From Candidatus Bathyarchaeia archaeon (lineage in GTDB: Archaea; Thermoproteota; Bathyarchaeia; TCS64): DNA of 64,000 bases. This document shows positions 33,927 through 54,452 of the stretch, in pieces. The notes below the pieces were generated by a model. The model made no database searches. It had not been told where the DNA came from and saw nothing but the letters and a program-made list of their open reading frames with translations. Position numbers and translations under genes: made by a program. The stretch spans positions 14,229 through 78,228 of the forward strand of contig JBEKDF010000009.1 of the NCBI GenBank assembly GCA_050014495.1. The letters run 5' to 3'. Position 1 is the stretch's first letter. Each line of letters opens with the position of its first letter.

Positions 33927-33967
33927 GGTGCAGACTCGCCACAGTGGGAGATTAAACTTTCCAGAAT

Positions 33968-37661: not shown

Positions 37662-38120
37662 ATGATGGATAAGGTGAACGCGGAGACCTGTGATCAGTGT
37701 GGTAAATGCCCGTCATCGTGCCCGGTCACAGTACGCATCGAGGGCTTCAATCCTCGCCAGATCATTGCGAAGGTCGCCTTGGGTAAAGAGGCTGAGCTGA
37801 TGAAGAGCCAGGTTTTATGGACCTGCACTAGCTGTCTCAAATGTAAGGAGCGTTGCCCTGAGGAGATCTCCCCTTACGACGTTATACTAGCTCTGCGCCG
37901 TATAGCTATCAATCTGGAGTTACCTCACCCTGAGGGATACGACGAGTCAGTGAAAGCCGTGGTTGAAACTGGCGTCGTTCAGCAACCTCAGCTTGTTCGA
38001 ACTCGTAACAAGGAGAGGAAGGATAGGAAGTCTATGGGACTTCCACCTGCGGAGAAGCCAAGGGACATGACTATGTACACCAAGACTCTCCGAGGCATTC
38101 TTGAGGAAGATGAACTTTGA
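37662..38120 (+). CDS. hdrC: HdrC-like 2x[4Fe-4S] protein
   Basis: CDQCGKCPSSCP and CTSCLKCKERCP. ATG at 37662 is preferred over TTG at 37638. Confidence 0.8.
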   Translation: MMDKVNAETCDQCGKCPSSCPVTVRIEGFNPRQIIAKVALGKEAELMKSQVLWTCTSCLKCKERCPEEISPYDVILALRRIAINLELPHPEGYDESVKAVVETGVVQQPQLVRTRNKERKDRKSMGLPPAEKPRDMTMYTKTLRGILEEDEL

Positions 38121-38995
38121 AGTACGCTCTCTATTTGGGGTGTACTGTCCAGACCGAACAGTACGGATACGAGGCCTCTGTGAGGGCGACTATGCCTAGG
38201 CTGGACGTAGAACTCGTGGGCATGGTCGGGGTAAGTTGTTGTGGGTTCCCACCATTTAGTAGTGTCAATGAATTAGCCTGGTTGTACTCATCTGCTAGGA
38301 ATATTGCTATAGCCGAGGAGATGGGCCTCCCACTACTAACCTTATGCAACGGTTGCCATCTCTCTTTCACGGAGACTATACACAAGCTGGGGAACTCCCC
38401 AGAATTGAAGGTGAAGGTTAATGAGAAACTTGCCGGAGAGGGACTTAGATATGATGGTAAGGTTAAACTCGTTCATATCTTTGAGCTCTTACACGATGAA
38501 GTTGGGAAAGATAAGATCACGGCCGCTTTAACGAATCCCTTGAAGGGATTCAGGTTCGCAGCGCAGCCGGGCTGCCACTCTATAAGGCCAAGCAGAGTCG
38601 GTAGACCTGACAACCCTGAGAACCCGAAGAAGCTTGATGAACTCATAACCTGGCTCGGGGCTGAGGCCGGTGACTACCCTGAGAAAAACGACTGCTGCGG
38701 CAGCTCTCTAGCAGTATCAGCCGGGAAGGTCGTCCTCGATATAGCTGGGGAGAAACTCAAAGCAGTCAAACGCCGCGGCTTCGACGGCCTTGTAACGACC
38801 TGCCCATTCTGTTTCAAAGTCTACGACAACAAGCAGCGAGCCATCCAGGCGATGGGGGGCAAGGAGATAGATATGCCCGTCTTCTACTATACTCAGTTAC
38901 TCGGCCTCGCCATTGGCCTTAAACAGGAGGAGTTGGGAATCGATCTAAATCAGAGCCCGGTCGACGAGTTGCTCATAAGGATAGGAGGAGCATAG
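38117..38995 (+). CDS. hdrB: HdrB-like CCG-domain protein
   Basis: YLGCT...VSCCGFP and QPGC...DCCGSS...CPFC. Confidence 0.85.
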   Translation: MKYALYLGCTVQTEQYGYEASVRATMPRLDVELVGMVGVSCCGFPPFSSVNELAWLYSSARNIAIAEEMGLPLLTLCNGCHLSFTETIHKLGNSPELKVKVNEKLAGEGLRYDGKVKLVHIFELLHDEVGKDKITAALTNPLKGFRFAAQPGCHSIRPSRVGRPDNPENPKKLDELITWLGAEAGDYPEKNDCCGSSLAVSAGKVVLDIAGEKLKAVKRRGFDGLVTTCPFCFKVYDNKQRAIQAMGGKEIDMPVFYYTQLLGLAIGLKQEELGIDLNQSPVDELLIRIGGA

Positions 38996-38996
38996 G

Positions 38997-40304
38997 TTGA
39001 AGCCAGTACTCGTCATAGGTGGCGGAATCGCTGGTATACAAGCAAGCCTAGACCTCGCAGATAGGGGCACAAAGGTCCATCTAATTGAGAAGACCCCGAG
39101 TATTGGTGGCGTCATGGCGCAGCTTGATAAAACCTTCCCCACTATGGACTGTAGTATCTGCATACTAGCCCCGAAGATGATAGAGTGCTACAGGCACCCC
39201 AATATCACCATCCACTCTGAAAGCGAGGTCGTTAACCTCGAAGGCGCAGTTGGCGACTTTAGAGTTAAAATCCTCGAACACCCACGAAGCGTAGACGCGA
39301 AGAAGTGCACGGGATGTGGCCTTTGTAGTGAAAAGTGCCCCGTCAAACGTCCCAGCAGCTTCCAGGCTGGCCTTGGACAGCGTAAGGCGATCTACCTTGC
39401 CTTTCCTCAAGCCGTCCCCCTCATAGCCACAATCGATCGCGACGCCTGCCTCTGGTTCACAAAGGGATTATGCAGAACATGTGAGAAGGTCTGTCCCTCC
39501 AAAGCGGTGGACTATGAGCAAAAGGAGAACTTAATCGAACTAAACGTCTCTAGCGTAATCACTGCGACTGGCTTCGAGCAGTACAATCCAAAAGACATTG
39601 GCGAATATGGCTACGGGCGCTACAAGAACGTTCTGACTGCTTTGGAATTCGAGCGCCTCGTGTGCGCTTCAGGGCCCACCGGTGGTGTCCTAAGCAGACC
39701 CAGTGATGGGAAAGTGAGCCACAACACAGCCTTCATCCAATGCGTCGGGAGCCGAACCCAGACCGTCGGTTACTCCTATTGCAGTGCTTTCTGTTGCATG
39801 TATGCCACTAAGGAGGCTGTCCTCATCAAGGAGCATGAGCCAAGTAGTCACGTCACAATATTTTACATGGATCTAAAGACCTTCGGAAAGGGATTCCAGG
39901 GCTTCGTCGATCGCGCCCAAAGCCACTGGGGTGTCCAGTATATCAGAGGCCGTCCAGGTGAAATAAGGGAGGATCCAGTTACAAAGAACCTAACAATCCT
40001 TTATGAGAACACGGAGATCGGCAAGGTCGAGCGTATCGAGGTCGACATGGTAATCCTCTGCACAGCCGCTGTCCCACACAGAGAAAACAAGGAGCTCGCT
40101 CAGGTCCTCGGTGTCGAGCTGGATGAATATGGCTTTTTCGAGGTGGGAGACCCCGTCTCCTCGCCAGTCGAAACAGGCAAACCAGGTGTTTACGTCTGCG
40201 GTAGTTGCCACGGTCCAAGAGACATTCCCGAATCAGTAGCCGAGGCGAGCGCAACCGCGGCGAAGGCTTCTGAGAACATCGTACTTTCGGAGGTAGGACA
40301 ATGA
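38997..40304 (+). CDS. HdrA-related flavoprotein lacking the HdrA N-domain (QmoA-like architecture)
   Basis: VIGGGIAGIQASLDLA, TMDCSICILAPKM, CTGCGLCSEKCP and YCSAFCCMYATKEA. TTG start. 435 aa. Confidence 0.8.
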   Translation: MKPVLVIGGGIAGIQASLDLADRGTKVHLIEKTPSIGGVMAQLDKTFPTMDCSICILAPKMIECYRHPNITIHSESEVVNLEGAVGDFRVKILEHPRSVDAKKCTGCGLCSEKCPVKRPSSFQAGLGQRKAIYLAFPQAVPLIATIDRDACLWFTKGLCRTCEKVCPSKAVDYEQKENLIELNVSSVITATGFEQYNPKDIGEYGYGRYKNVLTALEFERLVCASGPTGGVLSRPSDGKVSHNTAFIQCVGSRTQTVGYSYCSAFCCMYATKEAVLIKEHEPSSHVTIFYMDLKTFGKGFQGFVDRAQSHWGVQYIRGRPGEIREDPVTKNLTILYENTEIGKVERIEVDMVILCTAAVPHRENKELAQVLGVELDEYGFFEVGDPVSSPVETGKPGVYVCGSCHGPRDIPESVAEASATAAKASENIVLSEVGQ

Positions 40305-41974
40305 CTTCAGCTCCCAGAATCGGGGTCTTTGTCTGTCGCTGCGGTATAAATATCGCCGCTTATGTGGATGTCCCCGCAGTCGTTGAGTACGCAAAGACAC
40401 TCCCTGGCGTCACCTATGCAGAGGAAAACATGTATACATGCAGCAGCGATGGCCTAAACAAAATAAAGGAAGCGATCAAGAAGTACGGTCTAGAACGTAT
40501 TGTCGTCGCCTCATGCACTCCTCGAACACACGAGCCCCTATTCCAGGCCACCTGCGAGGAGTCAGGGGTGAACAAATACCTTTTCGAAATGGCAAATATA
40601 CGGGACCAGTGTAGTTGGGTTCACCAGAAAGAGCCAGAGAAAGCGACTGAGAAAGCAAAAGACCTAATTAGGATGGCTGTTGCAAAAGCTGCTCTCCTCG
40701 AGTCAGGCGATGAACCTGAAATCGATGTTACCCCGAGCACCCTCGTCATAGGTGGTGGGGTCTCCGGCATGCGGGCAGCCCTCAGCATCGCAGACCAAGG
40801 ATTCAATGTCACTATCGTGGAAAAGGAGTCCACCCTCGGAGGTAAGCTGCGGGGATTCGACAGCCTCTTCCCACACAAGCAGAAAGCCTCAGAGGTTCTC
40901 ATGCCATTAATTACAAGGGTATCCACTCACCCTAGGATCCGGGTTCTGACCAAGAGCACTGTAAAATCTGTCTACGGCTTCCTTGGGAACTTTGACATAG
41001 GTGTTGAGACTCGTCAAGGAGTTGAGGTTCTAAAGGTTGGTACAATAATCGTCGCCGTTGGCGCAGACATACTAAAGCCAAAGGGTCTATACTTGTATGG
41101 TGAAGACCCACGCGTTGTCACTCAGAGCGAGCTTGAGCAACTTCTTCACAAGGGTGAAGTTGACGCTAAAATTGTTGTAATGATCCAGTGCGCAGGCTCA
41201 CGCAATGAGGAGCACCCCTACTGTAGCCGGATATGTTGTAATGAGGCCGTGAAAAACGCCATTAATATCACTGAGAAGGAGAGCGATGTCTACATACTCT
41301 ACCGTGACCTCCAAACCTATGGCATCCACTACTCGCGCCTCGAGCAGGAGGCCAAGAGAAAAGGCGTTAAGTTCCTAAAATATCAGGCGGAGAGACCGCC
41401 GTTGGTCACCTCAGAGCCTGATGGGCTCAAGGTGAGTCTATACAGTCCGACAGTGAACGAGGCCGTGGAGCTTAGACCCGATATGCTTGTCCTTAGTACC
41501 CCACTAGTGCCTGTGGCTGACGCTAAAGAGCTTAGCCAGTTGCTGAAGGTCCCTCTCGACTCAAATGGCTTCTTCATGGAGGCGCATGTTAAGCTTCGCC
41601 CAATAGATTTCGCTACTGATGGTATCTTCATCTGCGGCACTGCCCACAGCCCGAAGGACATTGGAGAGAGTGTCGCGCAGGCACTGGGCGTGGCGAGCAG
41701 GGCCTCAATACCCATGGCTAAGAAGAGGGTACGCACTGCGGCCATCATGAGCCAGGTGGACCAGACGCGATGCAGTGGTTGCGGCACTTGCCTAGATGTC
41801 TGCCCATACAACGCATTGAAGAAAAACGATAAGGGCCTCGCCGAGACCATCGCCGCCGTCTGCAAAGGTTGCGGAGTATGCGGTGCAACGTGTCCTGAGA
41901 AGGCGATAACTATGCACCACTTTACAGACGCACAGATAGAAGCACAGGGCCTAGCCGCCCTAGAGGAGGACTAG
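40301..41974 (+). CDS. hdrA: HdrA-type flavoprotein (N-domain, FAD domain, C-terminal 2x[4Fe-4S])
   Basis: IGVFVCRCGINIA...ASCTPRTHE...EMANIRDQCSWVH, VIGGGVSGMRAAL, YCSRICC, CSGCGTCLDVCP and CKGCGVCGATCP. ATGA overlap with the upstream gene. Confidence 0.85.
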   Translation: MTSAPRIGVFVCRCGINIAAYVDVPAVVEYAKTLPGVTYAEENMYTCSSDGLNKIKEAIKKYGLERIVVASCTPRTHEPLFQATCEESGVNKYLFEMANIRDQCSWVHQKEPEKATEKAKDLIRMAVAKAALLESGDEPEIDVTPSTLVIGGGVSGMRAALSIADQGFNVTIVEKESTLGGKLRGFDSLFPHKQKASEVLMPLITRVSTHPRIRVLTKSTVKSVYGFLGNFDIGVETRQGVEVLKVGTIIVAVGADILKPKGLYLYGEDPRVVTQSELEQLLHKGEVDAKIVVMIQCAGSRNEEHPYCSRICCNEAVKNAINITEKESDVYILYRDLQTYGIHYSRLEQEAKRKGVKFLKYQAERPPLVTSEPDGLKVSLYSPTVNEAVELRPDMLVLSTPLVPVADAKELSQLLKVPLDSNGFFMEAHVKLRPIDFATDGIFICGTAHSPKDIGESVAQALGVASRASIPMAKKRVRTAAIMSQVDQTRCSGCGTCLDVCPYNALKKNDKGLAETIAAVCKGCGVCGATCPEKAITMHHFTDAQIEAQGLAALEED

Positions 41975-41976
41975 AT

Positions 41977-42744
41977 ATGAGCACATTCGAGCCAAATATA
42001 GTTGGCTTCTTATGCAATTGGTGCAGCTACGCTGGAGCAGACCTAGCCGGCGTCAGTCGAATCCAGTACCCCACTAACCTGCGCATCATCAAAGTCATGT
42101 GTAGTGGGCGTGTCGAGCCTGGGATGGTCCTCGAATTCCTCGAAGCAGGCGCTGACGGGATCATGGTGACAGGCTGCCACATAGGCGACTGCCACTACAT
42201 TACCGGGAACCTCCACACGAAGCGGAAATTCGCCCTTCTCCAGAAGCTATTAGCAAAGACAGGTCTCGAGCCCCAGCGCATAAGGCTCGAATGGAACAGC
42301 GCCTCTGAAGGACAGCGCTTCGCCAATCTCGTCAAAGAGTTCACCGAACAAGTACGCGACATCGGCCCGACACCCCTAAAAGCACCGAAACCAGACGCTG
42401 CGAAGCTCCTTAACCTCCGAGCTGCGAAGGCAGCAGCGGATGCCTTCAGGCTCCGCGCCCTTGTTGGTAAGGAAGAGAAGCTCGTGACCACAGGCAACGT
42501 CTACGGTGAGAAGATCACTCAGGATGAGTTCACGAAGACGATGGATAGCGCCGTCGAGACTGAGTTCCAGGTCCACCGTATACACATTCTACTTCAGGAG
42601 AGGTCGAGGTCTGTGAAGGACTTAGCAAATCAGCTCAGTTTGCAGCCTAGGACCGTACTCGGGTATATGGTTGCTCTTAGGCAGAGAGGCTGGGTCGACG
42701 TCAAGGAGACCGTGGAGGGAACACCCCTCTACGCGGCGCAGTGA
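41977..42744 (+). CDS. mvhD: MvhD ([2Fe-2S]) domain fused to a C-terminal winged helix-turn-helix
   Basis: N-terminal half FLCNWCSYAGADLAG...VMCSGRV...GADGIMVTGCHIGDCHY. An Ala/Lys-rich linker follows. C-terminus RSVKDLANQLSLQPRTVLGYMVALRQRGWVDVKETVEGTPLY is wHTH-like. Confidence 0.75.
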   Translation: MSTFEPNIVGFLCNWCSYAGADLAGVSRIQYPTNLRIIKVMCSGRVEPGMVLEFLEAGADGIMVTGCHIGDCHYITGNLHTKRKFALLQKLLAKTGLEPQRIRLEWNSASEGQRFANLVKEFTEQVRDIGPTPLKAPKPDAAKLLNLRAAKAAADAFRLRALVGKEEKLVTTGNVYGEKITQDEFTKTMDSAVETEFQVHRIHILLQERSRSVKDLANQLSLQPRTVLGYMVALRQRGWVDVKETVEGTPLYAAQ

Positions 42745-42755
42745 GGCGATTATTT

Positions 42756-45700
42756 ATGAAGAAAACAGGCAGTGTAATGGTCGTCGGCGGAGGCATAGCG
42801 GGTATTCAAGCTGCTTTGGACCTCGCTGACTCCGGCTTCAAGGTCTACATAGTTGAGCGGGAGCCGAGCATCGGTGGAGTCATGACGCAGCTAGATAAGA
42901 CATTCCCCACGAACGACTGCGCAATGTGCATACTCGCCCCCAAGCTTGTAAGTGCAGGGCGCCATCCAAATATACAGCTCCTAACCTACAGCGAGATCAA
43001 GTCGCTCCAAGGCAAGGAAGGCAACTTTACCGCGACCATTCTCAAGAAGGCGCGCCATGTTGACCCTGCCAAATGCAAGGGTTGTGGCGACTGCGCCACC
43101 AAGTGCCCAACATCCGCCATAGACACATACAATGCTAACCTCAACGACCGCAAAGCAGTGTACATACGCTTCAGCCAGGCCGTCCCACTTACATATGCGA
43201 TCGACAAAGACAAATGCCTCGGCTGCGGCATATGCAGCGAAGTCTGCAAGGCCGATGCCATAAAATACGACGACGTCGACGAGGAGTTGAAACTCAATGT
43301 CGGCTCCGTCATACTCGCCCCCGGCTTCGAGGCATTTGACCCCTCAAAGCTCAGCGAGCTAGGCTACGGCAGATATCCGAACGTAGTTAGCAGCATTGAG
43401 TTCGAGCGTATACTCAGCGCCACAGGGCCCTACCGGGGAGTCGTCCTTCGTCCGAGCGATGGCGACATGCCCAAGAAGGTCGCATTCCTCCAGTGCGTGG
43501 GTAGCCGAGACGCCCGTGTTGGCAACCCTTACTGCAGCGGTGTCTGCTGCATGTACGCTATAAAGGAGGCCGTCATCGCACAAGAGCATAATCCCGGCCT
43601 CGAGGCTAGCGTCTTCTTCATGGACATACGCGCCTTCGGCAAGGAATTTGACGACTACTATACACGCGCTGAGCACGAGCACGGAATCAAATTCATCAGG
43701 AGCCGCGTTGGCCACATCGAGCAGGACCCGGATACCGATAGCCTCAACCTGACTTACGAAGAGGGTGGCGAGGTCAAGCAGAATCGCTACGACATGGTGG
43801 TCCTGGGTGTGGGTCTCAACCCGCCGAAGAGCGCGGAGCAGCTCAGTAAGGCGATAGGCTTCACACTCAACAAATATGGGTTCGCAGAGACCAAGCTCTT
43901 CAGCCCGCTGGAGACGAGCAGGAAGGGTGTCTACGTCTGCGGGGCATTCAGTAGCCCGAAGGACATCCCCGACAGCGTCGCACAGGCAAGTGGCGCAGCC
44001 GCGAAAGCAGCTAAGGCGATCTCCAGTGTTCGTGGGACGCAGGTTAATCCCATTATGTTCCCAACGGAGCGCGACATCGCCAACGAGGAGCCACGCGTCG
44101 GCGTCTTCGTCTGCTGGTGCGGGATAAACATTGGCGGCGTAGTCAACGTCCCGAGCGTCGCGGCATATGCGAAGAAGCTCCCCCACGTAGCATATGCAGA
44201 GGAGAACCTCTACACATGCAGCCAGGACACACAGGACAGGATCAAGAACACCATCATTGAGTACAAGCTCAACCGCGTTGTCGTCGCCTCATGCACCCCA
44301 AGGACACATGAGCCACTCTTTAGAGCCACCCTAAGGGAGGCGGGCCTCAACGAGTATCTCTTCGAGATGGCGAACATACGCGATCAGTGCAGCTGGGTAC
44401 ACATGCACGAGAAGGAAGCCGCAACAAAAAAAGCTGAGGACCTTATCAGGATGGCGGTCGCCAAAGCGAGCCTCCTCCAACCACTTGAGAAGCATAAGAT
44501 ACACGTCACACCAGGAGCACTCATCGTCGGCGGTGGCGTAAGCGGTATGACTGTCGCCCTCGAAATCGCAGACCAGGGCTACGAGGTCCACCTCGTTGAG
44601 AAGGAAGCTGAGCTAGGCGGTAACATGAAGAGGATTAAGTTCCTCCCATCGGGGGAAGATCCTGCCGCGGAGCTGGCTAAGCTCGAGGCGCGAGTAAGGA
44701 AAAACCCTAATATCCGGCTCTACACGGGAACGCAGGTCGTAGAGATAGACGGCTACGTCGGCAACTTCGAGACTACCCTTGTCAGTACAGAGAAGGAGAC
44801 ACAGATCAAGCACGGCGTAGTGATCGTAGCCACCGGCGGGGTGGAATACACGCCAAAGGAGTACGAATATGGCAAGCACCCCGACGTCATGACTCAATTC
44901 CAGTTAGAGGAAAGGCTCCACGGAGGCTACAAGCCCAACACAGTAGTTATGATCCAGTGCGTAGGCAGCCGTAATGAGGAGCACCCGAACTGCAGCCGTG
45001 TTTGCTGCACCGGCGCTGTTAACAACGCCCTAAAGGTCAAGGAGGCAAACCCCGCAGCAGACATCTACATCCTCTACAAGGACATGAGGACATACGGCTT
45101 CAAGGAGGACTACTACCGGGCCGCTGCAAACAAAGGTGTCATATTCATCAGATACGACGACGGGCACAAGCCCGAGGTCCTAGCTCAAGGTGGCCTCAAG
45201 GTGAAGGTACTCGATCTCGTCCTAATGGAGAACGTGGTCATCGAGCCCGACGCCCTCGTGCTCAGCGCGGGTGTACTACCCGCCGCTGACAATAAGCGCC
45301 TCGCGGGGATGCTCAAGGTACCTATCAGCAAGGACGGCTTCTTCCTAGAGGCACATATGAAGTTGCGCCCCCTTGACTTCGCGACGGAGGGCGTCTACCT
45401 CTGCGGTTTAGCACACGGCCCAAAGACCATCGATGAGTGCATAAGTCAGGCCAGTGGCGCCGCTGCGAGGGCGCTGACCATCCTAAGCCACGACGAGATC
45501 GAGGCCGAGGGCGCCATTGCCAGCGTCGATGAGGATGCCTGCAGCGGCTGCCAGATGTGCGCCGCCGTCTGCGAGTTCAAGGCGATAGAGATGGTGAAGA
45601 AAGGCGACAAGATACACAGCCACGTCATCGCCGAGGTCTGCAAGGGTTGCGGAGTCTGCGCAGCCACTTGCCCGAGTGGGGCAATCACGGTCGGGCACTT

Positions 45701-45758
45701 CACAGATCTTGAGATACTTAGCCAGGTGAAGGCCGCCTTAGAGGAGGCGAAGCAATGA
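42756..45758 (+). CDS. hdrA: fused double HdrA (QmoA-like module plus full HdrA module in one polypeptide)
   Basis: The N-terminal half parallels 38997-40304 (VVGGGIAGIQAALDLA, NDCAMCILAPKL, YCSGVCCMYAIKEA). The C-terminal half parallels 40301-41974 (VGVFVCWCGINIG, EMANIRDQCSWVH, VGGGVSGMTVAL, CSGCQMCAAVCE, CKGCGVCAATCP). Confidence 0.85.
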   Translation: MKKTGSVMVVGGGIAGIQAALDLADSGFKVYIVEREPSIGGVMTQLDKTFPTNDCAMCILAPKLVSAGRHPNIQLLTYSEIKSLQGKEGNFTATILKKARHVDPAKCKGCGDCATKCPTSAIDTYNANLNDRKAVYIRFSQAVPLTYAIDKDKCLGCGICSEVCKADAIKYDDVDEELKLNVGSVILAPGFEAFDPSKLSELGYGRYPNVVSSIEFERILSATGPYRGVVLRPSDGDMPKKVAFLQCVGSRDARVGNPYCSGVCCMYAIKEAVIAQEHNPGLEASVFFMDIRAFGKEFDDYYTRAEHEHGIKFIRSRVGHIEQDPDTDSLNLTYEEGGEVKQNRYDMVVLGVGLNPPKSAEQLSKAIGFTLNKYGFAETKLFSPLETSRKGVYVCGAFSSPKDIPDSVAQASGAAAKAAKAISSVRGTQVNPIMFPTERDIANEEPRVGVFVCWCGINIGGVVNVPSVAAYAKKLPHVAYAEENLYTCSQDTQDRIKNTIIEYKLNRVVVASCTPRTHEPLFRATLREAGLNEYLFEMANIRDQCSWVHMHEKEAATKKAEDLIRMAVAKASLLQPLEKHKIHVTPGALIVGGGVSGMTVALEIADQGYEVHLVEKEAELGGNMKRIKFLPSGEDPAAELAKLEARVRKNPNIRLYTGTQVVEIDGYVGNFETTLVSTEKETQIKHGVVIVATGGVEYTPKEYEYGKHPDVMTQFQLEERLHGGYKPNTVVMIQCVGSRNEEHPNCSRVCCTGAVNNALKVKEANPAADIYILYKDMRTYGFKEDYYRAAANKGVIFIRYDDGHKPEVLAQGGLKVKVLDLVLMENVVIEPDALVLSAGVLPAADNKRLAGMLKVPISKDGFFLEAHMKLRPLDFATEGVYLCGLAHGPKTIDECISQASGAAARALTILSHDEIEAEGAIASVDEDACSGCQMCAAVCEFKAIEMVKKGDKIHSHVIAEVCKGCGVCAATCPSGAITVGHFTDLEILSQVKAALEEAKQ

Positions 45759-46186
45759 GCGAATACGAGCCCAAGCTAGTCGGCTTCCTCTGCAACTGGT
45801 GCAGCTACGCTGGCGCAGACCTCGCCGGAGTCAGCAGGTTCCAGTACCCGACTAGCCTGCGTATAATACGAGTCATGTGCAGCGGCAGGGTCCACCCCGC
45901 ACACATATTGGAAGCTTTCAAGGATGGTGCCGACGGCGTCTTAGTCGCAGGGTGTCACACCCCAAGCGACTGCCACTATATCTCGGGAAACTTCAAGGCG
46001 CAGCGGCGTGTGGCCATGGTCAAAAAGCTCATGGAGCAGCTTGGCATCGACCCAGAGAGGCTTCGCCTCGAGTGGATAAGCGCAGCCGAGGGAGAAAAAT
46101 TCGCGAAGACCATAAGGGAGATGACAGAGGACCTGAAGAAGCTTGGTCCGAGCCCGGTCGTTAAGTCCCTTAGGAAGGCTGACTGA
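45755..46186 (+). CDS. mvhD: MvhD (methyl-viologen-reducing hydrogenase delta subunit-like, [2Fe-2S])
   Basis: FLCNWCSYAGADLAG, VMCSGRV and GADGVLVAGCHTPSDCHY. 143 aa. Confidence 0.85.
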   Translation: MSEYEPKLVGFLCNWCSYAGADLAGVSRFQYPTSLRIIRVMCSGRVHPAHILEAFKDGADGVLVAGCHTPSDCHYISGNFKAQRRVAMVKKLMEQLGIDPERLRLEWISAAEGEKFAKTIREMTEDLKKLGPSPVVKSLRKAD

Positions 46187-46187
46187 C

Positions 46188-46697
46188 ATGGAACAATCTG
46201 AGATAAGGATCACCACCGAGGGGAAAGAGTTCAGGAACGAGGTGATGGCGACCCACGGCGCGGACAAGTTGATGCTGTGCTATCAGTGCGGCACGTGCAG
46301 CAGCGACTGCCCGGTAGCTAAAAGAGTCCCTGAGTTCCGCCCACGTAACATCGCTCGCTTAGCCATCTATGGGCAGAAGAACCGCCTCCTCGACGGCGAC
46401 CTCGTCTGGCTATGCGCTGGTTGCTACACCTGCTACGAGAGGTGCCCCCAGAAGGTGCACGTTAGCGAGATAGTATCCGCCCTCAGGCAGCTAGCCCTAA
46501 GGGAGGGTAAGCTGCATCCCACAATCAAGTCTATAGTCACAAGCATCCCTAGGCTCGGATACATCAGCGAAATCGGTGAGTTTGAGAACGAGATGCGAGG
46601 CGAGGACGGGCTACCACCCGCACCCACTCCCGCCACAGAGGAGATCAAAGCTATAATGAAGAAGACCGGCATCCTCAGCCGCGTCGGGGGCGAGTAG
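46188..46697 (+). CDS. hdrC: HdrC-like 2x[4Fe-4S] protein
   Basis: CYQCGTCSSDCP and CAGCYTCYERCP. The start is moved to ATG 46188, just after the mvhD stop. Confidence 0.8.
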   Translation: MEQSEIRITTEGKEFRNEVMATHGADKLMLCYQCGTCSSDCPVAKRVPEFRPRNIARLAIYGQKNRLLDGDLVWLCAGCYTCYERCPQKVHVSEIVSALRQLALREGKLHPTIKSIVTSIPRLGYISEIGEFENEMRGEDGLPPAPTPATEEIKAIMKKTGILSRVGGE

Positions 46698-46699
46698 AG

Positions 46700-47560
46700 A
46701 TGGAGTACGCCTTCTTCGTCGGATGCACCGTGTTGAGTAGGTTACCCGGCTACGAGAAGTCCGCACGCAAGGTAGCGGAGAAGCTGGGTGTCGAGCTCGT
46801 CGACATGCCCGGCTCAAGCTGCTGCGGTACAACTTATATGGAGACCCTGGACCGTAAGACGGCCCTCGCCCTCGCAGCACGTAACATCGCGATAGCGGAG
46901 GAGATGGGCCTTGACATAGTCACTGTATGCAATGGCTGCACCGAGAACCTCACAAAGACAAACAAGACGCTCAAGGAGGACCCTACGCTCCGAGCCGAGG
47001 TCAATGAGATACTCAAGGATACCGGCAAACAGTTCAAGGGCACCGTCAACGTCAAACACTATGTTAGGATGCTCAAGGAGGATGTCGGCCTCGACAAGGT
47101 CAAGGCAGCATCCGTGAAGCCATTCAAGGGCCTCAGAGTGGGTGCCCACTACGGTTGCCACCTCCTAAAGCCTAGCGACGAGATGCTCTTCGAGGACCCT
47201 AACGACCCAAAGGTGCTCGATGACCTGATCCACGTCACTGGTGCGGAGAGCATCGACTACCCGGGCAAGACTGAGTGTTGCGCCGGCCCTGTGATGGGCA
47301 TCAGGGAGAAGGTTACGTGGGATGTCGGTATGGGAAAGGTCGAGACCGTCAAGAGGTACGCCGACGCCATGACGACCTGCTGCCCATTCTGCTACATAAC
47401 ATATGAGAGATGCCAGTTCATGACTGAGAACAATCCAGGCCTCCCAGTCGTCCACATCACCCAGCTACTCGGCCTCGCAATGGGCCTCTCAGCTGAAGAG
47501 GTTGGGTTGAGCTCAAACAAGGTGGATGCCAGCGTGCTTCTGGCGAAGCAGGAGACATAA
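46700..47560 (+). CDS. hdrB: HdrB-like CCG-domain protein
   Basis: FVGCT...SSCCGT and HYGC...ECCAGP...CPFC. Confidence 0.85.
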   Translation: MEYAFFVGCTVLSRLPGYEKSARKVAEKLGVELVDMPGSSCCGTTYMETLDRKTALALAARNIAIAEEMGLDIVTVCNGCTENLTKTNKTLKEDPTLRAEVNEILKDTGKQFKGTVNVKHYVRMLKEDVGLDKVKAASVKPFKGLRVGAHYGCHLLKPSDEMLFEDPNDPKVLDDLIHVTGAESIDYPGKTECCAGPVMGIREKVTWDVGMGKVETVKRYADAMTTCCPFCYITYERCQFMTENNPGLPVVHITQLLGLAMGLSAEEVGLSSNKVDASVLLAKQET

Positions 47561-47562: not shown

Positions 47563-48531
47563 ATGGAGAAGCTCAAGTTCGGGTTCTACTGGGCAGCAAG
47601 TTGCGGAGGCTGCGAGATCGCCGTCCTGGACATCGACGAGAAGATACTCGATGTGATGCAGATCGCAGACATCGTCTTCTGGCCCGTAGCCATGGATGTG
47701 AAGTATAAAGACGTCGAGGCCATGGCGGACGGCTACATGGATGTCTGCTTCTTCAACGGGGGCATACGCAACTCGGAGCAAGAACACCTAGCGAAGATGC
47801 TGCGCAAGAAGTCGAAGTACATCGTTGCTTTCGGCGTTTGCGCCCAGCTAGGCGGAGTCCCCGGTCTCGCAAACCTCAGCAACAGGAAAGATATCTTCGA
47901 AAGGGTATATCACACAACGGAGTCGACGGACAACATCGCAAATACGGAGCCGCAGACCAAGCACACACTCCCCGAGGGTAGCTCCGAGATACCTGTCTTT
48001 CAGGAGACCGTCAAACCCCTAGACCATGTCATATCCGTCGACTACTATCTCCCCGGTTGCCCGCCGCCACCTAAACTCATCTTCAACGCAATCGACGCCA
48101 TCGCGAAGGGCCAACTACCCAAGAAGGGCAGTATTCTCGCCCCTGAGCTCGCCGTCTGCGATGAATGCCCCAGGAAGAAGGAGGAGAAGAAGATATCCTC
48201 CATCAAGAGGATCATCGACTTCACACCCGAGCCAGAGAAGTGTCTGCTAGAGCAGGGACTCGTCTGCATGGGCCCAGCCACACGTGGGGGATGCGACGCG
48301 AAGTGCCTCGGCGCGAACATGCCCTGCACAGGCTGCGGAGGAGCATGCCCAGGAGCCATAGAGCAGGGATCAGCCATGATCAGCGCCCTCTCTACTGTTC
48401 TCGGCATCGACGACGAGAAAGGCGAGGGCTACGATGTAGACGCCGTAGTGGCGCAGCTGAAGGATCCCGTCGGGACCTTCTACAAGTACGCGTTACCAGC
48501 TTCAATTATAGGTAGGAGAATCAAAAAATGA
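47563..48531 (+). CDS. mvhG: [NiFe]-hydrogenase small subunit, Mvh/group 3c-like
   Basis: FYWAASCGGCEIAVLDIDEKILD plus distal Cys clusters (CDECP, CMGPATRGGCDAKC, CTGCGGAC). Confidence 0.85.
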   Translation: MEKLKFGFYWAASCGGCEIAVLDIDEKILDVMQIADIVFWPVAMDVKYKDVEAMADGYMDVCFFNGGIRNSEQEHLAKMLRKKSKYIVAFGVCAQLGGVPGLANLSNRKDIFERVYHTTESTDNIANTEPQTKHTLPEGSSEIPVFQETVKPLDHVISVDYYLPGCPPPPKLIFNAIDAIAKGQLPKKGSILAPELAVCDECPRKKEEKKISSIKRIIDFTPEPEKCLLEQGLVCMGPATRGGCDAKCLGANMPCTGCGGACPGAIEQGSAMISALSTVLGIDDEKGEGYDVDAVVAQLKDPVGTFYKYALPASIIGRRIKK

Positions 48532-49985
48532 AGACCATAACAATCGACCCCATCACGCGGCTAGAGGGCCATGGAAAGATCAGCATCTTCCTCAATGACC
48601 AGGGCAATGTGGAGAACGCCTACCTACAGATTCCAGAGCTTCGCGGCTTTGAGAAGTTCTGTGAAGGTCGCAGAGCGGAGGATATGCCAATAATCACTCC
48701 CCGTATCTGCGGAGTCTGCCCCGTAGCCCACCATTACGCTGCAACTAAGGCACTGGACGCCTGCTTTAACGTCGAGCCAACCGAGACGGCGAAGAAGCTC
48801 AGGGAGCTGATGTATACTGGCTACATCATCTACGACCACACTCTCCACTTCTACTTCCTGGGAGGTCCAGACTTCGTCGTTGGCCCAGATGCTCCCCCCT
48901 CGGAGAGGAATATCTTCGGTGTCCTCAAGCGGGTAGGTCTCGACGTCGGCAGGGATGTGATAAAGCACCGTGCGTACGGACAGAGGATAACCGAGATCAT
49001 CGGTGGGAAGGCGACTCACCCAACTTGTGGAGTCCCCGGCGGCATAAGTAAGGGACTCACCGAAGAGGAGAGAAACAAGATCGAGGAAATGGCGCGGAGC
49101 AGTGTGGAGTTCGCGAAATTCACACTCAGCGTCTTCAATGACATAGTGCTCAAGAATAAGCAGTATGTTGACATGATCTTCAGCGACCCCTACCGCTTAG
49201 ATGCCTACAACATGGGCCTAGTTGACGAAAATAACCACGTCAACTTCTATGATGGTGACATCAGAGTAACCGATCAGCAGGGTGAGGAGCTCGAACGATT
49301 CAAGGCTGCCGACTATCTCGACCATATCGCCGAGCGTGTCGAGTCGTGGACCTACAGCAAGTTCACTTACCTTAAGAAGGTGGGGTGGAGGGGGCTCACA
49401 GCGGGGCCGGAGAGTGGTATATACCGCGTCGGTCCATTGGGTAGGCTCAACGCGTCAGAGGGCATGGCAACGCCGCTGGCGAATGCGGAGTACAAGAGGA
49501 TGTACGAGACTCTAGGCGGTAAGCCAGTCCAATCGACCCTCGCATTCCACTGGGCCCGCCTAGTGGAACTTCTATACGCAGCTGAGCGCTCCCTCGAGCT
49601 CAGTACCGACCCATCGATAACAAAGTCCGACCTTCGTAACCCCATAGGGAAGCCCGGCGAAGGCATCGGGGTCGTCGAGGCCGCTCGCGGCACACTCTTC
49701 CACCACTACAAGCTCGACGATGACGCGATGGTGAAGAAGGCGAACCTCATAGTGGCAACCACGAACAACTACGCTGACATCTGCTGTAGCGTCCGCGATG
49801 CCGCCAAGGGACTAATCAAGGGAGGCGAGGTGAACGACGGCCTCCTTAACAGAGTGGAGATGGCGTTCCGCGCATACGATCCCTGCTTCGGCTGCAGTAC
49901 TCACAGCCTACCTGGTGAGGGGCCTCTCTCAGTCGAGGTCATCGGCGCAGACGGAAGCCTCGTAAAGAGTCTCAATAGGTACTAA
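48528..49985 (+). CDS. mvhA: [NiFe]-hydrogenase large subunit, Mvh/group 3c-like
   Basis: N-terminal RLEGHG...[11 protein letters not shown] and C-terminal DPCFGCSTH, followed by a 26-aa extension of the kind removed by the maturation protease. Confidence 0.9.
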
Positions 49986-50131: not shown

Positions 50132-50587
50132 ATGAGAACCCTGGTCATCGGAGTTGGCAACCTTCTGAGGACCGATGACGGGGTTGGAATCCACATAATC
50201 AAGGAGCTAAACGAGTTACACCCAGATGTTGACACCGTCGACGCTGCTATGGGGAGTGTGGAGATACTAGAAGCCATGAAAGGATATGACCGTGTCATCA
50301 TCGTCGATGCTATCGAGACAGGTGCAGAGGCGGGCACAATCTTTAGTGTTAACATCACACAAGGTGAGGATCCCCCCAAGATCACGTACAGCCACGGCAC
50401 TGATCTGATTACTATTTTACGCCTCGGACACCAGCTCTACGGCGAAGAGATGCCCAAGGAGATCATTCTCCTCGCCATAGAAGCTCAAGACACAACCACC
50501 ATCGGAGACGAACTCACAGAAAAGGTGCAGAGCGCGGTCAAAAAAACAATCAAAACCATACTCACTCTTCTAACGACGAATCGATAG
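50132..50587 (+). CDS. hydrogenase maturation endopeptidase (HycI/FrhD/HoxM family)
   Basis: MRTLVIGVGNLLRTDDGVGIHI...IIVDAI...HG. Confidence 0.8.
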   Translation: MRTLVIGVGNLLRTDDGVGIHIIKELNELHPDVDTVDAAMGSVEILEAMKGYDRVIIVDAIETGAEAGTIFSVNITQGEDPPKITYSHGTDLITILRLGHQLYGEEMPKEIILLAIEAQDTTTIGDELTEKVQSAVKKTIKTILTLLTTNR

Positions 50588-50713
50588 ATGATTGATAGAG
50601 CTATTTGGAACCTATCCGTATATCAAGAAGCTCGGATACAACCTTTGAAAGTTTTTAATGTTGTGAAGAATACTTCTAAAACATTATTAACCCTACCACT
50701 CCTCCCTTTAAGT

Positions 50714-51145
50714 ATGGTCAAGCTAGAAGGATTCAATTTTCCCGAAGACCTCTACTATCACCGCGAGCATATGTGGGTCAAAGTCGAGGGTGACAAGGTG
50801 CGTGTTGGTTACAACGACTGGGCCCAAAAGGCGGCAGGTAAGCTACTTAGCCTCAAGACGAAGCGACCAGGCGCCCCTGTCGAGATGGGGAAAACACTCG
50901 GCAGCATCGAGTCCGGTAAGTGGGTCGGCAGCCTCAAGGTCCCCGTAAGCGGTGAACTAGTGCAGCTGAACGAAGATGTCCTTAAGACCCCTAACCTCAT
51001 CAACAGCGACCCCTACGGAAAGGGTTGGGTTGCTATAATTAAGCCCTCCAAGCTTCAGGACGAGCTAAAGACTCTGATCAGTGGAAAAGACACCGCTGGT
51101 CTAGAGGCTTGGCTCAAGGAAGAGCGGGCCAAGGCGAAGCAATAG
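50714..51145 (+). CDS. GcvH-like lipoyl-carrier protein
   Basis: YHREHMWVKVEGDKVRVGYNDWAQ, a lipoyl-lysine context GSIESGKWVGSL, and SDPYGKGWV. The start is moved to Met 50714; 50588-50713 is AT-rich and promoter-like. Confidence 0.8.
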   Translation: MVKLEGFNFPEDLYYHREHMWVKVEGDKVRVGYNDWAQKAAGKLLSLKTKRPGAPVEMGKTLGSIESGKWVGSLKVPVSGELVQLNEDVLKTPNLINSDPYGKGWVAIIKPSKLQDELKTLISGKDTAGLEAWLKEERAKAKQ

Positions 51146-51181
51146 GCGGATGAGACTATAGAGAACTGGCGCCTCATCGAT

Positions 51182-52249
51182 ATGGGCCACCCCGAACCCC
51201 TAATAGCTCAGACCTTCTATGAATCCGTCGCCGAGGCAGTGGAGAAGGGATCAAGCCCTAATACCCTCATCATGCTCCAGCCTGGAGCGCCGTACGCTTG
51301 CGTCGGATATCATCAGGACATTGAGAAAGAGATAGATCTCGAATACTGCCGTAGCATTGGTCTCCCAATCATTCGAAGGAGCCAGGGTGGGGGTGCAACC
51401 TATCTAGACGGTAACCAGGTTTTTTATCAAATAGTAGCCAAAAATACAGAGGCATATCCCCCCACTGTCGATGCGATGTTTAAAAAGCTGTTAGCGGTCA
51501 CAGTCGAGACCTACAGACGTCTCGGTGTTCCTGCAGAGTTTAAACCGCTGAACGATGTAGTCGTCAAAGGTAAAAAGATCAGTGGAAATGGTGCCAGCAT
51601 GAATGGGTCGACTTCCATCTTGGTCGGCAATATCATCCTCGATATGAACTACGACATGATGGCCCGCGTACTCAGGGTCCCCGACGAGAAGTTCCGTGAC
51701 AAAATGGCTAAAAGTATGAGGGAGTGGGTGAGCAGCCTTAAGCGCGAGTTGCCTAACCCGCCAGACGGGGAGGAGGTCAAACGAGTCTACACCAAAACCT
51801 TCCAAGATCTCCTAGGGGTCCAGCTAACCAATGCGGAGCCAACTGCGGAGGAGTGGCGGATCTACGATACTGAGACCAAGCCGCGAAACCAGAGTCGTGA
51901 ATGGCTCTACATGGAGGCCCCCTATTCTACGCGCAAACCCGGCAGGGCAGTGAAGATAGCCCACGAGGTCAAGATCGTTGAATCGGATTATAAAGCGGGT
52001 AAACTCATCCGTGTGAGAGCTGAGATGAAGGGTGAAGAGATACTCGACTTAAGGATAACCGGTGATTTCTTCTCGATTCCTAAGGAGGCTATATTCCACC
52101 TTGAGGAAGTCCTACGGGGCATTCATTTAGACGAAGCGTTACTCCGTTCGGAGATAGGACAATTCTATGCGAAGGAGAAACCTGAGATCCCCGGTGTAAG
52201 CCCAGAGGACATGGTCCAGGCCATATTGAAGATCAAAACAATGCTCTGA
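51182..52249 (+). CDS. lplA: lipoate-protein ligase A
   Basis: RRSQGGGATYLDGNQVFYQI, KGKKISGNGA and VLRVPDEKFRDKMAKSMREWV. The true N-terminus may lie 8 codons upstream at a non-ATG codon (see findings). Confidence 0.8.
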   Translation: MGHPEPLIAQTFYESVAEAVEKGSSPNTLIMLQPGAPYACVGYHQDIEKEIDLEYCRSIGLPIIRRSQGGGATYLDGNQVFYQIVAKNTEAYPPTVDAMFKKLLAVTVETYRRLGVPAEFKPLNDVVVKGKKISGNGASMNGSTSILVGNIILDMNYDMMARVLRVPDEKFRDKMAKSMREWVSSLKRELPNPPDGEEVKRVYTKTFQDLLGVQLTNAEPTAEEWRIYDTETKPRNQSREWLYMEAPYSTRKPGRAVKIAHEVKIVESDYKAGKLIRVRAEMKGEEILDLRITGDFFSIPKEAIFHLEEVLRGIHLDEALLRSEIGQFYAKEKPEIPGVSPEDMVQAILKIKTML

Positions 52250-52251: not shown

Positions 52252-53757
52252 TCAGCTGTGGAGCTTGATTCGAGCCTCGGCGGAATCCAATTTCTGCAGT
52301 GCTTCCCTAATTCTTTCTAGTCTTTCCGAGTGACGCTTCTCTTGCTCTGTTAGACTTTTCTTCCTATTTGCAATCATCTTTCTTACCGATTCCGGGGCTG
52401 GTCCACCAGTCGTGCTTCTCCCCAGCAGGTTTTGGTTAAGATCGAGAGCCGAGGTCAATTCCTCGATTGAGACGTCGATCCTCCTACCAATAATCTTCTC
52501 GGAGGCTTTTGCTATCATTTCTGGGCCTATCTCTTCCGCATTCTTTTCCTCCTCTAATGCCTTTATTACAACTTCTACGATGATATCGTGTGCTTGGCGG
52601 AAGCTGATGCCATGGTTTCTCACGAGGGTGTCAGCGAGGTCGGTTGCTGTGGTGAAGCCCTTTCTTAGGTTCTTAAGCATCACGTCCCTCTTCGGGGTGA
52701 GAGTTGCAACGGCTCCCGCCATCACCTTCGTACTTCCCACGGCCGTGTCTAGAGCCACAGGTTCGAGTAGTATCCTGTCGACGGTATTCGTGTATGTGAC
52801 ACCCTTGACTGAGGCTACCGTAGAGACTAGGTTTCCAATCGACTCAGCTGAGTAACTCTTAATGTATTCAAACTCAAGGGGATTCTTCTTTTGTGGCATG
52901 ATGCTGCTCGTCCCTGCGTATGCCTCGTCGATGTCGATCATGTTGTACTCGTCACTGCTCCAGATCTGGAGATCCTCTGAGAGGCGCCCGATCTGCGTCA
53001 GATGGATTGCGATGGCTGAAGCAAGCTCGATGACGTAGTCGATGGTGGCTACTGCGTCGGTACTGTTCTCACAAAGGCCATCGAAACCTAGGTACTCCCT
53101 CATCTTCTCCCGGTTGACGTCCCAGCTTGTCCCAGCGAGGGCAGCAGCCCCCATGGTGCTCAGGTTCGTTCGATTGTAGACACCCTCAAGCCGCTCCACA
53201 GTGCGTGCGGCTGCTTCTACGTGGGCGAGGATGTAGTGAGCGAGCGTCACGGGTTGAGCTTGTCTGATGTGTGTGTAGCCCGGCATGAGTGTCTCGACAT
53301 TATCCTCCGCTTTCCCGATGAGTAGTCTCTGGAAATCGATGACTGCTCCTATGAGTCTCTCCGTCTGGTCCCTATAATAGATGCGGCGCTGGGCATGTCC
53401 CATATCGTTTCGACTCCTGCCGATGTGCATCTTTCCACCGACCTCACCCACTAGTTTGATGAGCGCGGTCTCCGTGGACATGTAACCGACGAGGGAGGCG
53501 TCCATTGTAGCCGCTTTCTCAACGGCATTGATCCCCTCGAGGATCCTACTAGTCTCCTCAGCTGTGATTATTTTCTGCTCCTCTAGCATGATGGTGTGGG
53601 CGCGGTGAATGAGGACTTGACCATAGTAGCTGGCTACATCGAAGCTCTGGGGGTTTCGCCTCCCCTTGTTGAGTTCCGTGATCGACTCCGCCTCGGTTTT
53701 CTTCGCTCTGCCGAACCTCTCCCAGTCCGTCTTCGGATGCTCACCCATAGTAATCAA
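52252..53757 (-). CDS. fumarate-lyase superfamily enzyme, argininosuccinate-lyase-like
   Basis: SRNDMGHA and the family signature GTSSIMPQKKNP. The N-terminus lacks the usual ArgH WGGRF motif and a coiled-coil C-terminal tail is present, so the substrate is uncertain. Confidence 0.7.
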   Translation of the reverse strand: MITMGEHPKTDWERFGRAKKTEAESITELNKGRRNPQSFDVASYYGQVLIHRAHTIMLEEQKIITAEETSRILEGINAVEKAATMDASLVGYMSTETALIKLVGEVGGKMHIGRSRNDMGHAQRRIYYRDQTERLIGAVIDFQRLLIGKAEDNVETLMPGYTHIRQAQPVTLAHYILAHVEAAARTVERLEGVYNRTNLSTMGAAALAGTSWDVNREKMREYLGFDGLCENSTDAVATIDYVIELASAIAIHLTQIGRLSEDLQIWSSDEYNMIDIDEAYAGTSSIMPQKKNPLEFEYIKSYSAESIGNLVSTVASVKGVTYTNTVDRILLEPVALDTAVGSTKVMAGAVATLTPKRDVMLKNLRKGFTTATDLADTLVRNHGISFRQAHDIIVEVVIKALEEEKNAEEIGPEMIAKASEKIIGRRIDVSIEELTSALDLNQNLLGRSTTGGPAPESVRKMIANRKKSLTEQEKRHSERLERIREALQKLDSAEARIKLHS

Positions 53758-53837: not shown

Positions 53838-54452
53838 ATGCCCTACGATTTCAACTATGACCTATCTGGTATACCAAGATCCTTCTTTAGGGAGCTGGTC
53901 AGGGTCGCGGAGCAGAGGCAGCTACATAAGAGGCTGGGGATGAGGGCGAGGACCCTGGCTAAGACCTTTAAGCTGAGCGAGGCGACGGGACTCGATGTCC
54001 AAAATCTCCTAACGATAATCGAGGATCTCGTCGACGTCCAGATACTAAACGCTAGGCAGAGAGATACATTTGCTAAGACTGAGAGGAGGGCGCTCTTCCT
54101 CCCACACTGCTCGAGGAAACACATGGACGGGAGCTGCAAGGCCCAATTTGATGCGACCGTTCCGTCTTACAGCTGTGCTCATTGTTCCAGTGACTGTCTC
54201 GTGAGTAAGGCCACAACACTGGGGGAGGAGAAAGGGTACGCCGTCTTTGTGGTTCCGGGTGGCTCCTGCATACCCGGTATCATCAAGAAGAGCAGCTTCG
54301 AAGGCATCGTTGGTGTCGCGTGCGGTCAGGAGTTGATTCCAGCGTACGAGATGACGAAGAGAGTGGGGCTACCGACTCAGGCAGTCCCCCTGATCAAGAA
54401 TGGCTGCGCCAACACTGTCTTCAGCTACCAGGTTCTCGAGGGCACACTCTAG
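53838..54452 (+). CDS. DUF116-family Cys-rich protein
   Basis: LFLPHCSRKH...CKAQF...SCAHCSSDC...VVPGGSCI...VGVACGQEL matches my recollection of the DUF116 cysteine pattern. Confidence 0.45.
   Translation: MPYDFNYDLSGIPRSFFRELVRVAEQRQLHKRLGMRARTLAKTFKLSEATGLDVQNLLTIIEDLVDVQILNARQRDTFAKTERRALFLPHCSRKHMDGSCKAQFDATVPSYSCAHCSSDCLVSKATTLGEEKGYAVFVVPGGSCIPGIIKKSSFEGIVGVACGQELIPAYEMTKRVGLPTQAVPLIKNGCANTVFSYQVLEGTL

Follow-up and report, generated by a model that had tools for sequence, protein, structure and literature searches.

A gene for a GcvH-fold lipoyl carrier and a gene for a lipoate-protein ligase lie side by side on contig JBEKDF010000009.1 of a Candidatus Bathyarchaeia archaeon, downstream of a hydrogenase-heterodisulfide reductase (Mvh-Hdr) gene cluster. 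The window is the whole 64-kb stretch of this contig that was analyzed, and coordinates are window positions unless a related locus is named. The gcvH-like gene (50714–51145, + strand) encodes a 143-residue protein with a Pfam GCV_H match of 1.2e-33. It is located within an open reading frame (ORF) at 50588–51145, and its start at 50714 (MVKLEG...) is backed by 26 homologs of equal length with the same N terminus. Lys69, in the sequence SIESGKW, aligns to the lipoyl-lysine of solved GcvH structures including T. thermophilus GcvH (1onl), and it is invariant in 27 family members. The ligase gene (51158–52249, +) starts 12–36 nt past the end of the gcvH-like gene. Among the related loci, an LplA homolog directly follows in 40 and is in the vicinity in 54. 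Homologs closest to the gcvH-like gene are annotated Candidatus Bathyarchaeota, and related loci lie in Bathyarchaeial metagenome-assembled genomes (MAGs). Upstream on the same strand are a HycI-type [NiFe]-hydrogenase maturation protease (50132–50587; Pfam HycI 2.6e-15), the [NiFe] group 3c small and large subunits MvhG (47563–48531) and MvhA (48528–49985; Oxidored_q6, NiFeSe_Hases; VhuA model NF041785 1.1e-123), and a run at 37638–47560 that encodes HdrC, HdrB, two HdrA-like proteins, MvhD, a double HdrA of 1005 residues, MvhD, HdrC, and HdrB (Pfam CCG, Fer4, Pyr_redox_2, FlpD). A divergent HdrC-HdrB pair is located at 36060–37432 on the minus strand (Pfam CCG, Fer4; TIGR03288 score 267). 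The MvhA/G/D and HdrA/B/C gene set is present in the window. The gcvH-like gene lies 3.2 kb 3' of hdrB (46700–47560) and directly after mvhA-hycI, and the cluster is of the HdrABC-Mvh type rather than the sHdr type of sulfur oxidizers.

The spacer between hycI and the gcvH-like gene is 126 bp long and has a GC content of 34%, compared to 54% inside the gcvH-like gene. The motif tctaaaacattattaacc is found 22–39 nt before the gcvH ATG (50675–50692, +) and is kept in L005–L014 although the sequence further upstream diverges. This AT-rich element resembles TATA/BRE sequences and is a putative promoter. A scan for sigma-70 promoters and terminators across 49.9–52.4 kb gave no more sites than shuffled sequences, and this type of scan is not applicable to archaea. 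Genes for GcvT, GcvP, E1/E2/E3, radical-SAM lipoyl synthase (lipS), LipT, DsrE, and TusA were not detected in the 64-kb window by Pfam scans of all larger ORFs and inspection of the small ORFs by eye. These results bear out the gene-level description in the original prediction, which was made from the sequence alone: a GcvH-fold protein with an intact lipoyl-lysine context and a lipoate ligase, both 3' of a hydrogenase protease on one strand, with their own AT-rich promoter-like spacer and without gcvT/gcvP or E1/E2/E3 genes in the window.

The ligase is a two-domain Lpl(AB) protein. It matches LplA-B_cat (PF21948) at 2.1e-41 and the accessory domain Lip_prot_lig_C (PF10437) at 4.1e-05 with 23.9 bits, slightly below the 24-bit gathering score. 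The LplB model NF053749 matches residues 271–349. The score on TIGR00545 is 145 against a cutoff of 280, and the ligase is therefore a divergent member of this family; it also stays below the cutoff of the sLpl(AB) model NF053751 (109 versus 550). The first ATG of the ligase ORF is at 51182. The conserved LplA N terminus (IENWRLID; I-E-x-W-R-[FL]-[ILV]-D-[ML]-G-x-P-E-P) is encoded 5' of any ATG, GTG, or TTG codon in the window (51143–51184) and in L002, L005, L007, and L009–L014. In the window clade an ATA codon (51158), 12 nt after the gcvH stop and in frame with gcvH, occupies the position where other Bathyarchaeia have a Met, Val, or Leu start codon. Judged from this alignment, the real start of LplA is probably the non-canonical ATA at 51158. 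The N terminus would arise either by ATA initiation or by read-through or translational coupling with gcvH. Two genes past lplA is a cysteine-rich DUF116 protein (53838–54452, +; Pfam DUF116 9.1e-28), which recurs at this place in 6 related loci. The literature describes DUF116 only as "predicted metal-binding, unknown function." In a Cren7-encoding archaeon (L093/L094, 6842–8419, minus strand), DUF116 is fused to a full-length Lpl(AB), and the fusion adjoins two LipS-like radical-SAM genes, a LipT-like flavoprotein gene, and a relative of the gcvH-like gene. This arrangement suggests that DUF116 is an accessory protein of lipoyl-protein maturation.

The relationship of the carrier to the known GcvH-fold proteins was examined by motif and profile comparisons. 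A HMMER search of 1.84 billion representative sequences returned 10,387 homologs, and a motif set of 168 sequences was assembled from the best 150 of these 10,387 (50%-identity representatives), bacterial locus copies, and references. We define here a K-W signature, which is not a published criterion, as E[ST][GA]KW.G (K64-W65) without E14 and without S67-D68. The signature is present in 99 of the 168 sequences, and only about 20 are canonical. A hidden Markov model (HMM) built from K-W members less than 50% identical to the window protein gave it 185.6 bits compared to 119.8 bits for a canonical HMM, a difference to be read with the qualification that the K-W set was gathered by a profile of the window protein's own family and thus favors it. 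Canonical proteins show the reverse preference between the two models. The K-W class holds lipoate-binding proteins (LbpA) that are defined by their gene context. One is from Ca. Hydrogenisulfobacillus (dsrE-hdrC1B1A-hyp-hdrC2B2-lbpA), and another is from a Burkholderiales MAG (rhd-tusA-dsrE-lbpA-lipS1-slpl-lipT-lipS2). The class also holds tandem copies in Actinobacterial Hdr-like CCG/EtfBA clusters (group III of Cao 2018), and it includes the relative beside the LipS- and LipT-like genes in L093. In a neighbor-joining tree the family joins bacterial copies linked to Hdr/Etf, and three canonical GcvH proteins stand apart from it. The motif and HMM tests are preferred over the tree because the bacterial sequences in it were retrieved by motif and the canonical references number only three. 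The signature that splits the K-W class from true H proteins is new in this work.

The residues that distinguish the carrier from glycine-cleavage H proteins are in the lipoyl-arm cavity. E. coli GcvH holds the aminomethyl-lipoyl arm in a locked position with E12/H13/E14, and the arm exits past S67, D68, and Y70 (PMC7733448). A literature search for the pea H-protein residues Glu14/Asp67/Ser12 found nothing, and the E. coli residues serve as the reference. The window protein reads E-H-M-W and K-W-V-G-S-L-K at these positions. Four of the six arm residues are replaced (E14M, S67G, D68S, and Y70K), and the replacements are invariant or nearly so across the family. Compared to canonical GcvH (TIGR00527), the protein also carries A65W. 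The two types have a common Pfam family, fold, and lipoyl-lysine position, and they are 34–43% identical. The window protein scores 92.8 bits on the TIGR00527 gcvH equivalog, which has a cutoff of 115.85, and it barely passes the broader NCBIfam GcvH subfamily NF002270 (120.7 versus 117). A tblastn search with E. coli GcvT and GcvP found no match in 84 loci that contain relatives of the gcvH-like gene (about 1.2 Mb). A canonical GcvH (EHEW/ESVKAVSDxY) exists in other Bathyarchaeia, where its gene overlaps the end of gcvT (L095–L097, 8001–8411) and its product is 33–42% identical to the window protein. Nezhaarchaeales likewise have a canonical GcvH gene, which follows gcvP1-gcvP2 (L091, 8001–8420). 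The carrier is not a glycine-cleavage H protein because it falls below the equivalog cutoff, its arm residues are replaced, gcvT/gcvP are missing from the 84 loci, and Bathyarchaeia have a separate canonical GcvH. These data place the protein among LbpA rather than the housekeeping GcvH proteins, in line with the original prediction, and the cassette very probably encodes an LbpA-type lipoyl carrier outside the glycine cleavage system (GCS) together with its dedicated ligase. Public annotation carries the canonical and K-W types under one name. For many proteins, the label "glycine cleavage system protein H" is not to be taken as a sign of glycine cleavage or of the reductive glycine pathway.

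The gene neighborhoods of the relatives were compared for linkage to Hdr and CCG genes. The mvh-hdr-hycI-gcvH-lplA order is kept in about 12 GTDB species with GcvH identities down to 72%, and 11 related loci have hycI immediately upstream of the gcvH-like gene. A Thermoprotei archaeon (L092, 10001–17849) has a K-W gene in the order gcvH-osmC-hdrC-hdrB-hdrA-mvhD-mvhG-mvhA-hycI. A glpK-glpABC-MIP group is located upstream of this L092 cluster. In Baldrarchaeota and Odinarchaeota a K-W gcvH gene is convergent with hdrA/mvhD-hdrB-hdrC. A unit of hdrE-like, hdrD-like, ubiA, and gcvH genes with overlapping starts is found in 8 Bathyarchaeial species, and GlcD-like and FeS/CCG genes adjoin gcvH in Bathyarchaeia and Syntrophomonadaceae. 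The density of CCG genes is 0.045/kb within 4 kb of gcvH compared to 0.016/kb farther out, an enrichment of about 3-fold. The Hdr linkage recurs independently because these gene orders cannot all derive from the window arrangement. The second, independent Hdr-Mvh-HycI occurrence is a new finding, as is the presence of both GcvH types in Bathyarchaeia in different contexts.

The best-supported function of the K-W carrier is redox exchange with Hdr-type enzymes, the neighboring Mvh-Hdr complex among them, and we consider this assignment to have an even chance of being correct. LplA would lipoylate K69. The lipoyl/dihydrolipoyl group, bound to the protein, would then be the disulfide/dithiol on which the non-cubane [4Fe-4S] CCG sites in HdrB-type subunits act, and the lipoyl protein would fill the place held by the heterodisulfide of coenzyme M and coenzyme B (CoM-S-S-CoB) in methanogens. 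Four HdrB-like CCG proteins are encoded in the window, at 27414, 36060 (minus strand), 38117, and 46700. Their scores on TIGR03288, the CoB-CoM HdrB equivalog, are 160.6, 267.1, 247.2, and 293.4, respectively, and all are below the cutoff of 345.15. Profile scores of this kind are consistent with a substrate other than CoM-S-S-CoB, without proving one. With the adjacent MvhAGD-HdrABC, the carrier would take part in the reaction H2 + ferredoxin(ox) + lipoyl-protein <-> ferredoxin(red) + dihydrolipoyl-protein, which could proceed in the bifurcating or the confurcating direction. The Hdr module that would be involved and the direction of electron flow are, like the lipoylation of the protein in the cell, inferred.

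A possible second partner of the carrier is encoded 20 kb upstream. The genes at 26987–33019 (+) encode an HdrC-like protein, an HdrB-like protein, an SdhB-like Fe-S protein, a TfrA/SdhA-like flavoprotein, and an HdrA-MvhD fusion. The flavoprotein matches the TfrA model NF004900 at 8.3e-95, under the cutoff of that model. This set is flanked by the alpha and beta subunits of a class I fumarate hydratase (25236–26714, minus strand; Pfam Fumerase, Fumerase_C) and by malic enzyme (34607–36013, +), which with the fumarase completes a malate-to-fumarate feed. An SDR gene and a flavodoxin gene lie between the HdrA-MvhD fusion and malic enzyme. The region 25236–36013 resembles a thiol:fumarate reductase module that is equipped with an HdrA/MvhD of its own, in a host that is not expected to have CoM or CoB. 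The HdrBC-SdhAB-like module could provide fumarate-driven re-oxidation of the dihydrolipoyl protein, in parallel to the thiol cycle between Tfr and Hdr in methanogens.

Several observations weigh against the assignment of the carrier to the Mvh-Hdr complex. The Mvh-Hdr adjacency is confined to one subclade, and most relatives lack it. The commonest neighbors of gcvH-lplA in Bathyarchaeia are ribosomal and RNA polymerase genes (L18e/RpoD/S11/S4/S13) or a tRNA gene, and Hdr genes are missing there within 10 kb. With so many Hdr paralogs in the genome, an accident confined to this lineage could thus explain the adjacency. Conservation of the hdr, mvh, gcvH-like, and lplA adjacency among relatives, a point raised by the original prediction, holds for about 12 GTDB species, with Hdr/CCG genes in other orders elsewhere, and does not extend to the family as a whole. 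In L002–L004, two genes on the reverse strand intervene between mvhA and hycI. The gcvH-lplA pair is probably its own transcription unit rather than co-transcribed with mvh/hdr because the conserved TATA-like element precedes the gcvH ATG. Some K-W members are found without Hdr neighbors, as in Acidiferrobacter, where hemerythrins and a thioredoxin-like (Trx-like) protein are adjacent, and in one MtrA/H context. The window protein has no cysteine, as is the case for 53 of 60 archaeal family ORFs, and LbpA typically has a conserved N-terminal cysteine and a conserved C-terminal one, "except some archaeal LbpAs" (Cao 2018, PMC6067878). LipS1/S2, LipT, DsrE, TusA, and rhodanese genes, which accompany LbpA, are not found nearby. 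The proposed pairing in the style of LbpA and sHdr accordingly stands with respect to the K-W class, the ligase, and the Hdr neighbors, and is weakened by the missing cysteines and by the absence of LipS1/S2, DsrE, and TusA genes from the window. The energetics also count against the assignment. The midpoint potentials are −414 mV for H2, about −500 mV for ferredoxin, about −290 mV for lipoamide, and −140 mV for CoM-S-S-CoB. With lipoamide, bifurcation from H2 to ferredoxin under standard conditions yields only about −7 kJ/mol, a much smaller gain than CoM-S-S-CoB would give. The reaction would therefore be readily reversible and at low H2 would run toward H2 (confurcation).

These observations also bear on the idea that the protein is the lipoyl carrier of another enzyme system, for example a lipoyl relay or GlcD/GlpC-type dehydrogenases only, and is next to Mvh-Hdr by chance. 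The cassette moves among neighborhoods with its own promoter-like element, Bathyarchaeial genomes contain many Hdr paralogs, and the interruption between mvhA and hycI in L002–L004 points the same way. This idea does not account for the second, independent adjacency of a K-W gene to Hdr-Mvh-HycI in another gene order and another class, for the K-W genes beside HdrABC/MvhD in Baldrarchaeota and Odinarchaeota, or for the local enrichment of CCG genes; an E2-type acceptor is not found nearby. We consider it unlikely, though worth keeping in view. OsmC and Ohr are lipoyl-dependent peroxidases that use lipoyl proteins as reductant, and the cassette could instead belong to an antioxidant or thiol-buffer module in which the dihydrolipoyl carrier feeds OsmC/Ohr-type or thioredoxin-fold peroxidases, with Hdr or another reductase only keeping the carrier reduced or being unrelated. 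An osmC gene is directly beside the K-W gene in L092, a thioredoxin gene is upstream in Baldrarchaeota, a Trx_3 gene follows lbpA in L088, and hemerythrin and Trx-like genes flank the Acidiferrobacter homolog. S. aureus GcvH-L reportedly aids oxidative-stress resistance (PMC12440151). OsmC, Ohr, and peroxiredoxin genes are not found in the window, and an antioxidant function by itself leaves the repeated CCG/Hdr neighborhoods unexplained; if Hdr were taken as the reductase, these neighborhoods would be explained and the antioxidant function would coincide with the redox-partner function. An antioxidant module is rather improbable. The position of osmC between the K-W gene and hdr/mvh in L092 hints at an H2-driven peroxide-detoxifying branch.

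Two further explanations give the carrier a role unconnected with Hdr. It could be a housekeeping H protein that serves glycine cleavage or the reductive glycine pathway, with gcvT/gcvP elsewhere in the genome, in which case its position beside Mvh-Hdr would be meaningless. The Pfam GCV_H match, the narrow pass on NF002270, and the label "glycine cleavage system protein H" in all public annotations of the family speak for this explanation. GCS genes are reported from some Bathyarchaeial orders (PMC10321748), and archaeal GCS genes can be scattered. The family-wide replacement of E14, S67, D68, and Y70, the score below the gcvH equivalog cutoff, the distinct canonical GcvH in a Bathyarchaeial gcvT-gcvH operon, and the 84 loci without gcvT/gcvP argue against it. 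Hou et al. 2023 found glycine cleavage genes in only two of eight Bathyarchaeial orders (Wuzhiqiibiales and Mazuousiales), whereas the K-W gene is seen in about 60 Bathyarchaeial species loci, counted without regard to order. A housekeeping H protein is thus very improbable. A role in hydrogenase maturation is more remote still. It is drawn by analogy with the aminomethyl-lipoyl H protein that contributes to the dithiomethylamine ligand of [FeFe]-hydrogenase, and two reports describe the H protein as needed for [FeFe]-hydrogenase maturation (PMC12752695, PMC12501116). The hycI gene immediately upstream in 11 loci fits this role, and so does hypA, which lies close to the gcvH-like gene in L001 and, together with a ParA/Mrp-like gene, in the complete genome CP070640. 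However, the hydrogenase here is a [NiFe] enzyme without a dithiomethylamine ligand, the [FeFe] role requires an aminomethyl-loaded arm whose binding residues are lost here, and most family members have no hydrogenase genes nearby. We give a maturation role almost no credence.

Redox partnership with Hdr-type enzymes is thus retained as the best-supported function, and it can be extended beyond the window. In non-methanogenic members of the TACK and Asgard archaea (Bathyarchaeia, Thermoprotei, Baldrarchaeota, Odinarchaeota, and Culexarchaeia), HdrABC-MvhAGD and related CCG enzymes may have a lipoylated LbpA-type protein as their physiological "heterodisulfide," and this protein would connect H2 and ferredoxin to acceptors such as fumarate. 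On this view, the sHdr-LbpA systems would be a specialized offshoot of an older and broader partnership. This generalization is offered tentatively, as a possibility that we would not yet favor. HdrABC-Mvh clusters occur widely among archaea and bacteria without CoM or CoB synthesis, and what they reduce is an acknowledged open question; the heterodisulfide of Mvh-Hdr in Bathy-6 "remains unclear" (Loh et al. 2021, PMC7886697). With a candidate that can be cloned together with its ligase, the identity of the Hdr substrate becomes directly testable. If the generalization is true, models of energy metabolism change for one of the most abundant groups of sediment archaea.

Other features of the window and of the related loci were recorded. 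An ArgH-like gene at 52252–53757 (minus strand), between lplA and the DUF116 gene, was considered as a lead to CoM synthesis on the basis of a sub-threshold XcbC match and was rejected when it passed the argH equivalog (358.6 versus 279.5). The region 1–11100 contains tyrosine-integrase genes (2562–3500 and 9654–11039), a PD-(D/E)XK nuclease gene, a 638-residue ORF without a Pfam match, and many small ORFs, and its GC content varies from 43% to 57%. This region is probably an integrated mobile element or provirus. A tRNA-like sequence (ggccaccgctctgaccttgctgagctacagaccc), recognized by appearance, is located on the opposite strand about 60–130 nt 5' of gcvH in the ribosomal-context loci L040, L043, L045, L053, L061, L064, and L067. 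In Syntrophomonadaceae (L072, 3828–16942) a cluster encodes E1 alpha/beta, E2, LipM-like, LipA-like, and K-W GcvH-like proteins, a GlcD-like flavoprotein, an FeS/CCG protein, and LplA, followed by a second GcvH-like protein, a second LplA, and a LipT-like protein. E3 was not found among the cluster genes scanned, and the CCG protein may stand in for dihydrolipoamide dehydrogenase.

The window system was also compared to three other known systems. Cao et al. 2018 (eLife, PMC6067878) established the coupling of LbpA to sHdr in sulfur oxidizers. The window carrier has in common with those LbpA proteins the GcvH fold, the lipoyl-lysine, membership in the K-W class, and the loss of the aminomethyl-cavity residues; both have a dedicated LplA-type ligase and Hdr-type CCG neighbors, and neither has a link to gcvT/gcvP. 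The window protein is only 35–41% identical to the two context-defined LbpA proteins that were aligned (P0215 and P0272), and its partner is a methanogen-like HdrABC plus MvhAGD in an anaerobe rather than the sHdr complex of a sulfur oxidizer. With the MvhAGD-HdrABC and TfrAB systems of methanogens, the window has in common MvhA/G/D, HdrA/B/C, and HycI, a TfrA-like flavoprotein beside CCG subunits, and a logic in which thiol and disulfide would cycle between a reductase and a hydrogenase-Hdr complex. It differs from them in lacking an MCR or CoM/CoB context and in its four HdrB scores of 160–293 against 345, and the proposed carrier is a protein-bound lipoyl group of much lower potential. The nearest precedent is in Culexarchaeia, where GcvH was proposed as the HdrB disulfide carrier in a cluster with Ehe [NiFe]-hydrogenase, HdrBC, HdrA2B2C2, and SdhA (Kohtz et al. 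2022, PMC9723716). Both are TACK archaea without CoM/CoB in which a GcvH-like gene is co-located with hydrogenase, HdrB, and SdhA-like genes, and the lipoyl group as HdrB disulfide is a genomic proposal in both cases. The Culexarchaeia hydrogenase is a membrane-bound group 4 enzyme, whereas the window encodes a soluble group 3c Mvh; this comparison was made by description. The original prediction of a "previously undescribed coupling" was too strong because Kohtz et al. 2022 had already proposed GcvH as the HdrB disulfide carrier next to a hydrogenase, and Cao et al. 2018 had described LbpA-sHdr. The window case is therefore not a new kind of system. It is an LbpA-type carrier without cysteines or sulfur transferases that is encoded beside a soluble Mvh-HdrABC.

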